Shown here: positions 12,585 through 16,703 of the stretch, piece by piece
Numbering within the stretch: position 1 is the first letter of the stretch
Layout: each line of letters starts with the position of its first letter
Origin: an uncultured Myxococcales bacterium
GTDB lineage: Bacteria; Myxococcota_A; UBA9042; PWKZ01; CAYRCM01
Assembly (NCBI GenBank): GCA_964422715.1
Contig: CAYRCM010000008.1
Location: forward strand, 1,894-65,893
Length of the DNA: 64,000 bases
Reading direction: 5' to 3'
Position numbers and translations under genes: made by a program
Notes under the pieces: model-generated
Told to the model about the DNA's origin: nothing
Databases searched by the model: none
The model's input: the letters and a program-made list of their open reading frames with translations, nothing else

Positions 12585-13385
12585 TCAGGCGGGGGGCTCT
12601 GCGGGCCACGGCTTGCGGAAGCCGAGGCCCCGGGCCCCGGCCGGCCCGTATCGCACCGATTCGAGGAACAACCCGTGCGCGGGTGCCGTGGGGCCGGCGG
12701 CCGTGCGGTCGCCGGACACGAGCAGCGCGCCGAGACTCTGCGGGCTGCGCCGCCCGCGGCCCACATCGACGAGGGTGCCGACGACGATGCGCACCATGTT
12801 GCGCAAGAACGCGTTGGCCGAGATGCGCACGCGCACGAGGCCCGGTTCGGGTTCGCCCACGCAGAGTTCAGTGACCAGCCGTCGGGTGCTGCGGCTGTCG
12901 CAGTGGGCCGCGCGAAACGCCGAGAAGTCGTGGTCGCCGAGCAGCTCGGCGGCAGCGGCCGCCATGGCCGCGCGGTCGAGCGGGAAGGCCACGTACCAGG
13001 CGGTGCGGGCGCAGAGCGGGGCGCGCACGGGGCCGTTCCAGAGGTCGTAGCGGTACGTCTTGCCGATGGTGTCGGCCCGGGCGTCGAAGGCGAGGTCGAC
13101 CTCGCACGCGTCCTGGACCGCGATGTCGGGGGGCAGGAGGCTGTTCAGACCGGCGCGCAGGCCACGCTCGGGAATGCGCGAATCCGTCATGAAATTGCAG
13201 GGATAGGAGATGGCATGCACGCCAGCGTCGGTGCGGCTCGAACCCGTGAGGCGGGGACGCGGCTCGCCGAGCAGGGTTGCGAGCGCCGCGCGGACCGTGC
13301 CCTGCACCGTGGGATCGTGAGCCTGTTCCTGCCAGCCGTGGTAGGCCGTGCCGTCGAATTGCAGCGTGAGCAGGATGTTGCGCAT
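12585..13385 (-). CDS. truA: tRNA pseudouridine(38-40) synthase TruA
   Basis: FDGTAYHGWQ, SSRTDAGVHA, FDAR, YRY, HDFSAF, NAFLRNMVR, TAPAHGLFL. Confidence 0.95.
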   Translation of the reverse strand: MRNILLTLQFDGTAYHGWQEQAHDPTVQGTVRAALATLLGEPRPRLTGSSRTDAGVHAISYPCNFMTDSRIPERGLRAGLNSLLPPDIAVQDACEVDLAFDARADTIGKTYRYDLWNGPVRAPLCARTAWYVAFPLDRAAMAAAAAELLGDHDFSAFRAAHCDSRSTRRLVTELCVGEPEPGLVRVRISANAFLRNMVRIVVGTLVDVGRGRRSPQSLGALLVSGDRTAAGPTAPAHGLFLESVRYGPAGARGLGFRKPWPAEPPA

Positions 13386-13410
13386 GGTGGGGCCGACGGG
13401 GACACGCTCG

Positions 13411-14202
13411 CTAGAACTCGAAGGCGATGCCGAAGAGGAACGTGCCGTCGGAGAGCCGGATGCTGTTGCCCTGGCCGAAGTCGTCGGCGCCAAGGTAGAC
13501 GTATTCGGCAAACAGGAAGGAGTTGTTGACGCCGACCTCGATGTCGAACGTCGCCGCCATGGTCGGGGCGAAAACGTCGAGCAGGAAGGCCAGGCCGGCC
13601 CCGGCATGCCAGCCCCACACCCCGCCGCGCGCGAGCCGCGTCTTGCCGGAACCGCTGGCCCAGTCGGAGATGTCGCCGTTGTCGTCGGTGGCCCACCACA
13701 CGACGTAGTCGAAGCCGGCCTTGACGTAGGGCACGAGCGGCACCGAGAAGCGTTCGGCCAGGTAGTCGAAGCGATAGACGAGGCTCAGCATGAACGGCAT
13801 GACGTAGAGATCGCTCTCGTCGCTGCCGCGCACCGCGTCGCCCGCGTAGGGATCGTAGGAGGTCAGGCTGTGGCCGGAGACGTTCGAGAACCCCACGCCG
13901 AAGCCAACGGCCAGCGAGCCCACGGCCTGGAAGAACTGCACCTCGAAGCCGAGTTGCGTCATGAGCACGCTGCTGCTGCCGAACACGTCTTTGAAGGGCC
14001 GGGCGCGCTTGAACTCGGAGTCGACCTCGGGCAGGTAGGGCCCGAACTTGACTTCGAGCAGGAAACGGCGCGGGCTCGCGGCATAGTTCTGGGTGGAGTC
14101 GGCCAGGTCGGCGGCCGCGATTTCGTCGGCCCGGAGCGGCGCACGAACGACGAGAAGCGTGCCGACGAGGGCCGCGAGCACGGGAATGCGGCGGGTCTTC
14201 AA
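13411..14202 (-). CDS. Small outer-membrane beta-barrel protein, MXAN_2562-like (263 aa)
   Basis: TTG start overlapping the upstream stop (TTGA), with AGGAGG RBS. Signal peptide, amphipathic strands (EVKFGPYLP, YRFDYL, PYVKAG) and terminal Phe (IAFEF). Family name is from recall. Confidence 0.75.
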   Translation of the reverse strand: MKTRRIPVLAALVGTLLVVRAPLRADEIAAADLADSTQNYAASPRRFLLEVKFGPYLPEVDSEFKRARPFKDVFGSSSVLMTQLGFEVQFFQAVGSLAVGFGVGFSNVSGHSLTSYDPYAGDAVRGSDESDLYVMPFMLSLVYRFDYLAERFSVPLVPYVKAGFDYVVWWATDDNGDISDWASGSGKTRLARGGVWGWHAGAGLAFLLDVFAPTMAATFDIEVGVNNSFLFAEYVYLGADDFGQGNSIRLSDGTFLFGIAFEF

Positions 14203-15440
14203 CGAACCCCTCCTCTGCGGAAGGCCCACGGCAGGGCGGGCAGGGCCAGGCGCCGCCGGCGCCACTGCGTGGCGGCGAGCCAGAAGGCGAGCACGAGCGC
14301 GAGCTGCCCAACCGGCGGCACGTCGACGAGGAACCACGCCCCGACGACGAGCGGCACGAGGGCCACCTGCACGACGAGCCGCAGCAGCGGATGCGTGCGA
14401 ATGAACCGCGCGAGCGGGGGGCTGTTTTCGTAGTACCAGGCCACGAAGTCGCGGCCCCAGGCGCTCTGCATGAGCCAGCCGTCGCGGAACCGGCGCAACG
14501 TATCGACGAAGGGGTGCAGGGGCGTGCCGTAGGCGGCCGTGGCGACGAAGCAGAAGCCGCCCGGCTCGCCGCCGCCGGCGTCCTTGTAGGCTTCGAAGAA
14601 GTCGGTGACGGGCTGCGGCTGCCCCATGACCGGCGTCGAGAGGGCGCTCTCGTTGTCGTTTTCGTCGAAGGTCGTGGCGCGCACGTAGTACCACTGGCCG
14701 TCGCTCAAGCCGGAGATCTTGTAGCTGCTCGTGGAAAACGAGCCGGACGACGAGACGCCGGCATCGTCGGGGCTCGAAAACTCGTTCTGCGCCCAGTGCA
14801 ACTCGTAGCGCACGTCGTCGTCTTCGCCGACCGAATCGGGGTTTTCGAGGGTGACGCGCAGTCCCCCTTCGCCGGCCTCGATCTCGGTGATGAGCGGCGG
14901 GTCGGGCGGCTCGAGGTCGACGGTGAAGGCGATCTGTTCGGAGTAGTAGGTGTCGCCGAGATTGTCGAAGAGCACGATGTAGACGCGCACCGTGTACGAC
15001 GAGCCGAGAGCGCACGTGTCGCCGAGAATGTCCGCCATGTCGATCGTGAAGACGCGATCGGCGGCGACGGTGGCATCGCCGTCGTCGACGAGAATCTGGC
15101 ATTCGCCGGCTTCCCAGTCGTTGGCGCTGCACGTCTTGTCGGGGCCCGAAAGCTTGGCCATGTAGCTGTCGTCGGCCCCGACCGGGATGGTGTACGACCA
15201 GGCCACCTCGATCTGGCCGCCGAGATAGGCCTGGCAGTCGCTCTGGTTGATGATGTGTTCTTCGGCCCCGGCCGTTCGGCCGATGCGGTTGTCGAGGTCG
15301 AGATCGTCGAGCCCCTGGATGGAGTCGACCTGGAAGCCCTCGATGTCGCCCGCCGCCGCGCCCCGGCCTGCAAGCAGGCAGGCGCTCATGAACAGCAGCG
15401 CAAACGCGCGCCGCCCGTACGCAATGCTGACCCCCGACAT
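14199..15440 (-). CDS. Exported acidic protein with FN3-like domain and C-terminal CFI-box-CTERM sorting domain (413 aa)
   Basis: GAGG RBS and signal peptide. FN3-like (ISGLSDGQWYYVRATTFD..NES). C-terminal CFVATAAYG...LRRFRD..L...GR.FVAWYY..SPPLA motif followed by TM and basic tail. Confidence 0.82.
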   Translation of the reverse strand: MSGVSIAYGRRAFALLFMSACLLAGRGAAAGDIEGFQVDSIQGLDDLDLDNRIGRTAGAEEHIINQSDCQAYLGGQIEVAWSYTIPVGADDSYMAKLSGPDKTCSANDWEAGECQILVDDGDATVAADRVFTIDMADILGDTCALGSSYTVRVYIVLFDNLGDTYYSEQIAFTVDLEPPDPPLITEIEAGEGGLRVTLENPDSVGEDDDVRYELHWAQNEFSSPDDAGVSSSGSFSTSSYKISGLSDGQWYYVRATTFDENDNESALSTPVMGQPQPVTDFFEAYKDAGGGEPGGFCFVATAAYGTPLHPFVDTLRRFRDGWLMQSAWGRDFVAWYYENSPPLARFIRTHPLLRLVVQVALVPLVVGAWFLVDVPPVGQLALVLAFWLAATQWRRRRLALPALPWAFRRGGVR

Positions 15441-15677
15441 GCTCACCTCATGGCGACCCGCTGGTCGCAGCCCCCCACCGGAGACTTCGGCGCGCAGAGT
15501 AGCAGGTTTCGTGCCATCGAAAAAGGCCCCGTTGCGCCCTCGTTTGCATCGGGGAGGTCCCCTTCGTCGCGAGGCGGCAGGCCCGGCAACGCTGCCAAAC
15601 GGGCGCGGCGGCGCGCCGCCGGGGAAAAAAACCTGCCAAATTGGCAAAGCCGACCCGCGGTGGGGCGTTCCACTGCA

Positions 15678-16703
15678 CTAGAGACCGCTTGCGACGAGCG
15701 ACTGCGCGGTGGCGAGCGCGTTGAGGGCGCAGAGCCGCAGGTTGTCGTAGCTCGCCACGAGCCAGAAGCCGCGCGCGACGGAGCGGTCGGGCCGCAACCG
15801 GCCGACGAACACCTCGTCTCGCTCGGCGGCGGCGACCGGCGTAGGGTACCCGTCGGCGGCCGGCTCGTCGACCAGTTCGACGCCGGGCGCGGCTTCGAGT
15901 GCGGCCTGCAGTTCGTCGCGGGCGAGCGCGGTGCCGAGCTGCAGCGCCACGACGGCCGTCTGGCCACTGAACATGGGCACGAAGAGCGCCGTGACGTCGA
16001 CCGGCAGCCGCGGCAGTTCGAGCAGCGCCCGCAACTCGTCGCCGCACCGCGCCTCGTAGTCGCTCGGCGCGCCGGTCTGGGCCGCGCCGACGAGCGGCAG
16101 CGTGTTGAAGGCGAGCGGCTGCGTGAATTCCTTCAGCAAATAGGGCCGCCCGTTGAGGATGCCGACGACCTGCGCCGAGAGGTCGGCCATGGCCGCCTGA
16201 CCGCGGGCACTCGCCCCGAGGCAGAGCGTCGCGGCGACCCGTTCGAGCCCGCCGGCCGCGGCGAGGGGGCCGAGCACCCGTGCGAGCGGCCCGGCGGCCG
16301 TGGTCGGCAGCCGGAGCAGCGTCGGCGCCAGGGCCGGCGCCGGACGTCCGAGCAGCCCGAGGGCTGGCGCCCCCGCGGCGCCGAGCCCCGCGGGGGCGGC
16401 GCCGCCGGAAAGGTCGATCACGACGGCCCCGGCCCGCTGCCAGGGCGCGGCGTGCGCCGCTGCAACGTCGGGCGGCGTGCAGAAGAACACGAGGTCGGCC
16501 GCGGGCTGGGCCGGCGGGAACACCTTGACCACGACGCTCTCGTCGTGCACCTGGCGCGTTTCGCCGGCCGAGCGGGCGGAGGCGTAGAGGTCGAGTTGGC
16601 GGAGCGGGAAACGCCGTTCGACGAGCAGGTTCACGAGCTCGCGGCCGATGGCGCCCGTGGCGCCCACGACGGCGACGTGCAGTTCGCGGCCACCGAGTCC
16701 CAT
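15678..16703 (-). CDS. Aspartate-semialdehyde dehydrogenase-like protein (Usg-like), apparently lacking catalytic residues
   Basis: VAVVGATGAIGRE Rossmann motif, ASARSAG, LAFNTLP, VPMFSGQ, YDNLRLCA. The NPNC motif is replaced by LPTT. Confidence 0.8.
   Translation of the reverse strand: MGLGGRELHVAVVGATGAIGRELVNLLVERRFPLRQLDLYASARSAGETRQVHDESVVVKVFPPAQPAADLVFFCTPPDVAAAHAAPWQRAGAVVIDLSGGAAPAGLGAAGAPALGLLGRPAPALAPTLLRLPTTAAGPLARVLGPLAAAGGLERVAATLCLGASARGQAAMADLSAQVVGILNGRPYLLKEFTQPLAFNTLPLVGAAQTGAPSDYEARCGDELRALLELPRLPVDVTALFVPMFSGQTAVVALQLGTALARDELQAALEAAPGVELVDEPAADGYPTPVAAAERDEVFVGRLRPDRSVARGFWLVASYDNLRLCALNALATAQSLVASGL

Follow-up and report, generated by a model that had tools for sequence, protein, structure and literature searches.

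A CFI-box-CTERM tail in the place of MYXO-CTERM on an SgmI-like exported protein paired with an MXAN_2562-family β-barrel in an uncultured myxobacterium

Two overlapping genes in an uncultured Myxococcales bacterium raise the question of how one conserved surface protein can be equipped with quite different C-terminal signals in related organisms, and what this says about the signals themselves. The genes lie on the minus strand of a 64,000-nucleotide stretch of the assembly GCA_964422715.1 (contig CAYRCM010000008.1, positions 1,894 to 65,893; here called the window, with a base composition of ~70% G+C). The upstream gene (14199..15440, minus strand, stop codon included) encodes a 413-residue exported protein, referred to below as the cargo, which ends in a CFI-box-CTERM domain, and the gene behind it (13411..14202, minus strand, stop codon included) encodes a 263-residue outer-membrane β-barrel. 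Their counterparts in Myxococcus xanthus, sgmI (MXAN_2561) and MXAN_2562, appear to be co-transcribed and their transposon mutants share a fitness profile, SgmI being implicated in motility dependent on type IV pili (T4P); MXAN_2561 is also identified there as SgmI and not, as a preliminary description of the window had it, SgmO (bioRxiv 10.64898/2026.08.28.747804). The tail of SgmI is a MYXO-CTERM signal. In proteins of this kind the tail helix holds the protein in the inner membrane, the Cys is presumed to be lipidated, a myxosortase then makes its cut and the type II secretion system takes the product to the surface, as exemplified by the prototype TraA, a myxosortase substrate that ends up on the cell surface after cleavage (PMC11980579). 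Is the window pair the same pair with its tail exchanged, and, if so, what do the tail and the barrel do?

Considering the cargo, it matches the SgmI model NF045522 at 82.4 bits, with residues 58-301 aligned to profile positions 32-283 of 304, which is all of the model except the MYXO-CTERM tail. The protein is of an immunoglobulin (Ig)/FN3 type and starts with a signal peptide at about residues 1-30 (MSGVSIAYGRRAFALLFMSACLLAGRGAAA, 15351..15440, minus strand), read from the sequence with a presumed cleavage site. The FN3 domain claimed by the preliminary description receives a Pfam match below threshold (fn3, residues 188-263, 18.7 bits against 25), and its fold is supported by the AlphaFold2 (AF2) model of a 34% identical homologue, the two together placing an FN3-type domain at about residues 177-275 (14616..14912, minus strand). 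Between this domain and the tail lies a family-specific linker motif, DFFEAYKDAGGGEPGGF (14553..14603, minus strand), which precedes a conserved Cys in both tail types, as the tails of more than 130 loci indicate.

At that Cys the CFI-box-CTERM domain begins. It occupies residues 297-365 (14346..14552, minus strand; CFVATAAYG ... LRRFRD ... YY..SPP.A from the invariant Cys297) and is matched near the C-terminus by NF041770 at 91.4 bits (cut-off 40, E 2.3e-26) over the whole profile, positions 1-69 of 69. All invariant columns of the alignment, namely the Cys and the signature ATAA.G / R..RD / YY..P..A, are present. The domain is followed by a predicted transmembrane helix at residues 376-398 (14247..14315, minus strand), assigned from helix 86-108 of a modelled tail fragment and from the hydrophobic segment that follows the CFI-box in most homologues, and by the Arg cluster RRRR at residues 394-397 (14250..14261, minus strand), which is preceded by W and expected to be cytoplasmic. 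The preliminary description was right about this succession of CFVATAAYG, hydrophobic helix and arginines, of which it had counted five where there are four. The MYXO-CTERM model TIGR03901 gave no match to the cargo at E values up to 1. Judged by profile and signature, the cargo belongs fully to the CFI-box-CTERM domain family.

The barrel leaves little doubt as to its family. NF040596 (MXAN_2562_fam) scores 212.1 bits, where the cut-off is 100 (E 6.6e-63), with residues 46-263 aligned to profile positions 1-208 of 208, so that the family assignment first made from the letters alone is borne out, together with the stated coordinates and the 263-residue length of the barrel; both genes lie on the minus strand. 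Its signal peptide comprises residues 1-25 (MKTRRIPVLAALVGTLLVVRAPLRA followed by DE, 14128..14202, minus strand; cleavage site presumed) and its barrel domain residues 46-263 (13414..14067, minus strand), with eight strands by homology to a modelled fusion and a C-terminal Phe. The hallmarks of an outer-membrane barrel are therefore found, with the signal peptide and terminal Phe coming from the sequence and the even strand number (eight) from the model of a 39% identical homologue. There are no Pfam domains on the protein, including no OmpA-type cell-wall-binding domain, for which 263 residues leave no room, and no POTRA or DUF560-type features among the NCBIfam and Pfam profiles.

Whether this pairing is peculiar to one genome was addressed by fetching ~150 barrel loci and building custom profiles of cargo core, barrel and CFI-box. 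Of 401 genomes sampled in the phylum, 319 have a member of the barrel family, which is seldom present in more than one copy. An SgmI-like cargo core lies directly upstream on the same strand in every one of the 138 testable loci, the window included, a constancy far greater than chance would give; the 11 barrel loci without such a core are contig ends or non-Myxococcota loci with other cargo domains. A linker of the form DFWxxYxxxGGxxxGGxC closes the extracytoplasmic part in all cargos, and the tail type is simply what comes after its Cys: 74 of the 138 loci have a short tail (Cys, 6-14 residues, helix and RRRR) and 64 a CFI-box followed by a helix and a basic cluster. In the short tails the match to NF045522 runs on to the end of the model, and three of seven tested reach TIGR03901 at its cut-off. 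Tails are uniform within families, being short in 22/22 loci of f3, which are also fused, CFI-type in 17/17 of f5 and short in 18/18 of f19, and the barrel tree requires at least nine switches of tail type and at least 15 switches between fusion and fission. Parsimony is equivocal about the ancestral tail type, barrels from outside Myxococcota offering no usable outgroup.

The gene neighbourhood gives another view of the same loci. Of 126 loci, 70 have truA as the next gene downstream in the same orientation, and of the 85 with enough flank, 58 have an asd-like homologue upstream on the same strand; since this neighbourhood is common to both types, and to the window too, the CFI-type and MYXO-type loci are positional orthologues. 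The window cargo can be regarded, from its sequence and surroundings, as a homologue and positional orthologue of SgmI that falls short of the NF045522 score and lacks the MYXO-CTERM features. These comparisons indicate that MYXO-CTERM and CFI-box tails replace each other at one conserved Cys of the same protein, in keeping with the earlier proposal of the same cargo-barrel pair with a different C-terminal signal, which is upheld by the homology to MXAN_2561 outside the tail and by the alternation of tails at that Cys. The preliminary description had called for a survey of barrel homologues with the tail of the adjacent gene tabulated, and had named a barrel unlike MXAN_2562 or an unconserved pairing as outcomes that would speak against it; the survey gave the opposite on both counts (138/138 paired, 74 short and 64 CFI). 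Its description of the barrel as dedicated to the CFI-box did not survive: the barrel tracks the SgmI-like cargo lineage whichever tail the cargo has, and pairs equally with MYXO-CTERM cargos.

The partnership is also visible in the way in which the two genes are joined. In the window, the barrel's TTG start (14202-14200) and the cargo's TGA stop (14201-14199) share the four nucleotides TTGA (14199..14202, minus strand), an overlap already noticed in the preliminary description and from which translational coupling is predicted, and a Shine-Dalgarno-like AGGAGGGG (14207..14214, minus strand) sits within the end of the cargo gene, 6 nt ahead of the TTG. Among 91 unfused pairs, 73 have such a 4-nt NTGA start/stop overlap and seven a 1-nt overlap, together 80 of the 91, and in 45 of the 138 loci cargo and barrel form a single open reading frame (ORF) with no stop codon between them. 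The order in the fused ORFs is cargo, Cys tail, helix, RRRR, a second hydrophobic stretch with an AxA-like end and then the barrel; they are seen with both tail types, and also in L043, the only sampled genome of the window's order. As they are consistent within families, and as a public protein collection holds 55 fused proteins of ~600-660 residues, the fusions are taken to be real. Across these loci, coupling of start to stop is the rule almost everywhere, and in a third of the lineages the pair is one ORF.

The fused forms also appear to fix the topology of the tail. In them the arginines form the n-region of the internal signal peptide that leads into the barrel, and the cluster must therefore be cytoplasmic, so that the preceding helix would cross from outside to inside and the CFI-box would be on the periplasmic side. 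The second-to-last helix of the tail was considered as the membrane pass and rejected, because it would place the Arg cluster outside, in contradiction to the fused forms.

Some structural insight comes from AF2 models of a natural fusion and of the window's own tail. The fusion, from locus L178 (626 residues, 55-sequence alignment), is 34% identical to the window cargo and 39% to the barrel, the latter compared with its residues 415-626, and was modelled with a mean predicted local distance difference test score (pLDDT) of 88. In order, the model has two β-sandwich domains, the CFI helices (281-356), the membrane helix (360-381), a disordered stretch (384-407) that corresponds to the Arg cluster and internal signal peptide, and the barrel (415-625), which is made of eight long strands at pLDDT above 90 with helices in two periplasm-side connections, residues 510-515 and 576-586. 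Tandem FN3 domains are the top PDB matches to the sandwiches (Foldseek, E ~2e-9), and a search with the whole model returned FN3 tandems only. The tail of the window cargo, modelled as residues 291-413, reached a pLDDT of 89 overall and 93-96 across the CFI domain, and consists of five helices, four of the CFI-box (298-304, 310-321, 327-349 and 351-373) and the membrane helix as the fifth. Foldseek found no relative of this tail in the PDB (best E 7.9), and the barrel profile found no solved relative among PDB sequences. The CFI-box is thus confidently predicted to be a folded four-helix module with no PDB match.

Eight-stranded barrels of ~210 residues belong to the size class of OmpA and OmpX and have no protein-conducting lumen. 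For this reason the barrel, as modelled, is a partner or anchor and not a translocon. A role as sorting channel, and the idea of a secretion channel altogether, were rejected on the strand number.

Turning to the organism itself, the assembly of 6.59 Mb in 417 contigs contains exactly one CFI-box match and exactly one MXAN_2562-type barrel, both at this locus. It also has at least 18 MYXO-CTERM matches above cut-off and encodes the myxosortase MrtP (NF040674, 290 bits against a cut-off of 250). Because of these two findings the organism can be said to run an ordinary MYXO-CTERM system, yet this one protein has a different tail. Three CPBP proteases are encoded in the same genome, for which the best NCBIfam model is the archaeomyxosortase MrtA at 59-79 bits against a cut-off of 200; MrtP and these three genes lie at C126:1310-1615(+), C5:30981-31199(+), C43:32852-33109(-) and C1:149840-150109(-).

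The CFI-box is by no means restricted to this pair, and no paper naming the domain was found in the literature searched. It is present in 103 of the 401 Myxococcota genomes, with 1-3 copies, in three contexts: on SgmI-like cargos, with helix and Arg cluster; on exported proteins of ~600 residues that stop at the end of the 69-residue domain and have no membrane helix; and, as a RCFIATAAMG variant, on helical-repeat proteins of ~410 residues with no visible signal peptide and no membrane helix. If the last of these are cytoplasmic, the CFI-box cannot be an export-side sorting signal only. The ~600-residue family was encountered at loci L140-L155, L161 and L163-L168 in Myxococcota and also at L176, L181, L198, L205, L207 and L237, with two copies side by side in L145 and L146; its members have an N-terminal domain (LEIEFTPT..IAIWIE..GNRPG..WPYGRR), then an FN3-like domain and then the CFI-box end, and for the N-terminal part neither Pfam nor NCBIfam has a model. 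The helical-repeat proteins are at L131-L138 and L170, in the window's class and mostly in family f5.

Across phyla, a scan of genomes with the degenerate DNA pattern for CF[IV]ATAA[YF]G yielded at least 120 loci (L171-L290). Those listed include Dehalococcoidia, Bacillota, Parcubacteria, a Halobacteriota archaeon, Nitrospirota, Geobacterales, Hydrogenedentota, Bdellovibrionota and Gammaproteobacteria, and most have a CFI-box with a helix and basic tail. The carriers among the matches listed are typical exoproteins, most often S8 (subtilisin-like) proteases, at 20 loci, and HEFHH metalloprotease-like proteins, at nine, besides FN3 adhesin-like proteins. Clustering of the neighbours of the 120 loci listed revealed no CPBP, rhomboid, exosortase or sortase gene recurring beside the CFI-box, the only recurring neighbours apart from CFI genes themselves being the asd-like gene (8) and a GspE/PilB-type secretion ATPase (7).

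Could the CFI-box be a signal for display at the outer membrane, as the preliminary description would have it? The domain is mostly found without any barrel and is common in lineages that have no outer membrane, and for the latter reason it is not an outer-membrane signal as such, nor is it barrel-specific; an outer-membrane-specific signal was rejected on its occurrence in Dehalococcoidia, Bacillota, Parcubacteria and an archaeon. The helix-less forms likewise speak against such a link as a general rule. A looser association within diderms receives some support. Among the 120 loci listed, 13 have an MXAN_2562-like barrel, either fused or encoded directly downstream, with Bdellovibrionota-type, Nitrospirota and Geomonas examples, and in L209 (Nitrospirota) and L219 (Ratteibacteria) a single ORF encodes an exported domain, CFI-box, helix, RRR, signal peptide and a PF13557 (Phenol_MetA_deg) barrel, a separate case in which the barrel joined to a CFI-tailed protein comes from another Pfam family. 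In diderms, then, CFI-tailed proteins are, on the domain assignments, fused or adjacent to private barrels of two Pfam families. Other arrangements were also seen around CFI tails. In L208 (Syntrophales) the tail is followed in frame by an internal signal peptide and a further exported part in which the FN3 repeat reappears; in L190 and L197 (Hydrogenedentota) the next gene encodes an exported protein with its own hydrophobic start and a partial, degenerate CFI-like stretch; and L234 (Nitratidesulfovibrio sp.) has a pilin- or pseudopilin-like start (prepilin-type FTLIEVIVVL), an internal CFI-box with helix and a long further region.

How does the pair compare with systems already known? With SgmI/MXAN_2562 (NF045522, NF040596) it shares a homologous cargo core, linker and barrel, the gene order, the tight coupling and, in many lineages, the asd-like/truA neighbourhood; the difference is the tail, where the window has CFI-box, helix and RRRR, 117 residues after the Cys, against a MYXO-CTERM of ~30 residues. 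TraA and TraB, too, are encoded by ORFs that overlap, and MXAN_5598 is a fused protein carrying its MYXO-CTERM internally (PMC11980579), so that a Cys-bearing, membrane-tailed surface protein followed by an overlapping barrel gene, and fused forms with an internal tag, are features of both systems. TraB and MXAN_5598, however, have an OmpA cell-wall-binding domain that is absent from the window barrel, the sequences are unrelated, and TraA, unlike the window cargo, is a PA14/Cys-rich receptor with MYXO-CTERM. By analogy the pair works like TraA/TraB, and, lacking the OmpA domain and sequence relationship, it is not a member of that system. The MYXO-CTERM/myxosortase route (MrtX, MrtP) offers the invariant Cys, the membrane helix, the cytoplasmic Arg cluster, the swap at the same Cys and an MrtP in this genome as points of likeness, whereas ~65 folded residues separate Cys from helix in the window tail and TIGR03901 is unmatched.

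To the CFI-box-CTERM family (NF041770) the window tail belongs by a full-length match, with all invariant residues and then the helix and basic residues that most members have; most of those members, such as the S8 proteases and metalloprotease-like proteins, are without an orthologous MYXO-CTERM version or a conserved barrel partner. Pairs with the Bd0486-family barrel (NF053801) in Bdellovibrionota are similar in having a CFI-tailed exported protein directly upstream of a small barrel (L204, L221, L226, L264 and L273), but that barrel is only distantly related to MXAN_2562 (48 bits for the window barrel against a cut-off of 370) and the cargo N-terminal domains differ. Type V autotransporters resemble the fused relatives in having passenger then barrel in one polypeptide; here there are eight strands and not at least 12, and the polypeptide runs through an internal helix, an Arg cluster and a further signal peptide between passenger and barrel. 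The pair, as modelled, is not a type V system.

These observations lead to the reading that we favour and consider probable, that the window holds an orthologue of sgmI/MXAN_2562 in which the CFI tail has taken over the role of MYXO-CTERM and the barrel anchors an adhesin. Cargo and barrel would both cross the inner membrane via Sec, the cargo first being retained there by the helix at its C-terminus, whose arginines would face the cytoplasm, and coupling or fusion would supply the two in equal amounts and at the same place. The barrel would insert in the outer membrane and serve as a putative docking partner or anchor of the cargo, being too small to conduct protein. The tail of CFI-box, helix and arginines would do the job of MYXO-CTERM, i.e. 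temporary tethering to the membrane, and probably also modification dependent on the Cys and release towards the outer membrane or cell surface. By analogy with the M. xanthus mutants, the pair likely has a role in cell-surface adhesion for T4P-dependent motility and aggregation. The parts of this reading are not equally secure: an orthologous cargo/barrel complex is very probable, while processing of the CFI tail at its Cys in the manner of MYXO-CTERM is a matter on which the analogy leaves us evenly divided.

Several points weigh against this reading. The 82.4 bits of the cargo miss the equivalog cut-off of NF045522 (150 bits), although seven MYXO-CTERM-type homologues from other families score only 46-91 bits and are all below 150 too, because of which the model is considered narrow. 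The literature searched yielded no report of cleavage or of a lipidated Cys for a CFI tail. The domain, at ~70 residues, folded and with invariant polar R, R, D and Y, is unlike the known short sorting signals and may therefore have a function other than sorting; there are forms that lack the membrane helix, and carriers that show no signal peptide; and, being a singleton in this genome, it implies no multi-substrate sorting system.

Alternatively, the CFI tail could be a permanent, uncleaved anchor in the inner membrane, from which the Ig/FN3 part would span the periplasm to bind the periplasmic turns of the barrel, making the pair a tether across the envelope. The tail has a bona fide helix and Arg cluster, the CFI-box is a folded domain and not a short cleavable signal, no processing enzyme tracks it among the 120 loci listed, and the helices at residues 510-515 and 576-586 of the modelled barrel lie on the periplasmic side. 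We nevertheless think a tether unlikely: the same cargo has MYXO-CTERM in half of the lineages, and the prototype TraA is cleaved and reaches the surface (PMC11980579), an invariant Cys at the junction would be without a role in a plain anchor, and two β-sandwich domains would be short for spanning the periplasm. That the Cys might be active in itself, attacking the preceding bond by an N-to-S acyl shift as in the Gly-Cys-Phe of Hedgehog, with transfer of the cargo's new C-terminus to a lipid or envelope polymer free of any sortase, would suit a folded domain with invariant Cys, Arg, Arg, Asp and Tyr, the Gly ahead of Cys in most members (GCFIATAA), the lack of a co-located sorting enzyme in the 120 loci listed, the single copy here and the spread over phyla with very different envelopes. 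This self-processing is purely speculative, and the all-helical fold, unlike that of Hint domains, and the variable residue ahead of Cys (G, P, A, R, K, F or Y) leave it with only a slim chance.

The remaining rivals concern the barrel. It could be a translocator devoted to the CFI-tailed cargo, which it would carry or flip through the outer membrane in the manner of an autotransporter, two-partner secretion or Slam, and the passenger-then-barrel order of the fusions recalls type Va autotransporters, as does the unrelated fused barrel in Ratteibacteria with its sub-threshold match to Pfam Autotransporter (20.2 bits against 26). We hold this to be very unlikely, as eight strands and ~210 residues put the barrel in the lumenless OmpA/OmpX class, POTRA and DUF560-type features are lacking, and a membrane helix, Arg cluster and complete internal signal peptide separate the parts, which would consequently be released as two proteins. 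That the adjacency has no meaning, two unrelated envelope genes happening to share an operon, is hardly credible: it is refuted by the conservation and fusions, the order holding in 138/138 testable loci, with 80 of the 91 unfused pairs overlapping and 45 fused in many families, and mutants of the two M. xanthus genes share a phenotype profile (bioRxiv 10.64898/2026.08.28.747804).

As for the surroundings of the pair in the window, truA (12585..13385, minus strand) starts 25 nt past the barrel stop and the asd-like (usg-type) gene (15678..16703, minus strand) lies upstream, both identified from their ORFs and from synteny as the conserved neighbours; the whole run of asd-like gene, cargo, barrel and truA (12585-16703, minus strand) is conserved across many families of the phylum. 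Between the asd-like and cargo genes a consensus scan gave a weak terminator-like hairpin with a T-run (15632..15648, minus strand), in a window where the scan found three sites against 2.3 expected, no more than shuffled sequences give. The hairpin suggests that the pair, or the whole run of cargo, barrel and truA, may have a promoter of its own in the ~190-nt spacer at 15441-15631. In Pseudomonas aeruginosa the equivalent place, between the asd-like gene and truA, is occupied by fimV, a type IV pilus gene, and this positional parallel between fimV and SgmI, both linked to T4P, may deserve a look.

The pair and both of its tails are already catalogued. Three things appear to be undescribed in the literature searched: that the two tails exchange on an orthologous protein, how frequent fusion is across the phylum, and the confident but unmatched fold of the CFI-box. 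The exchange means that a domain catalogued by NCBI replaces, at a conserved Cys, a tail whose pathway (MYXO-CTERM/myxosortase) has been worked out experimentally, and as the protein concerned is SgmI, whose mutant phenotype is known in M. xanthus, a model organism open to experiment, the function of the CFI tail becomes directly testable. One could go further and propose that MYXO-CTERM and CFI-box are two interchangeable forms of one ancient, Cys-dependent C-terminal anchoring pathway with the same steps, namely Cys lipidation, intramembrane cleavage of the CPBP/myxosortase type and surface export. We offer this tentatively, as an idea on the doubtful side. If true, the CFI-box would be a general surface-anchoring signal across bacteria and archaea, and in diderms its substrates would repeatedly have been handed to private barrels, for which the fusions to the MXAN_2562-like OMP_b-brl and PF13557 types are the evidence. 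For the Myxococcota, the SgmI/MXAN_2562 module emerges as near-universal and very often as one fused precursor with an internal signal peptide, which extends the pattern of TraA/TraB and MXAN_5598 from an oddity to a general way to build pairs of surface protein and barrel.

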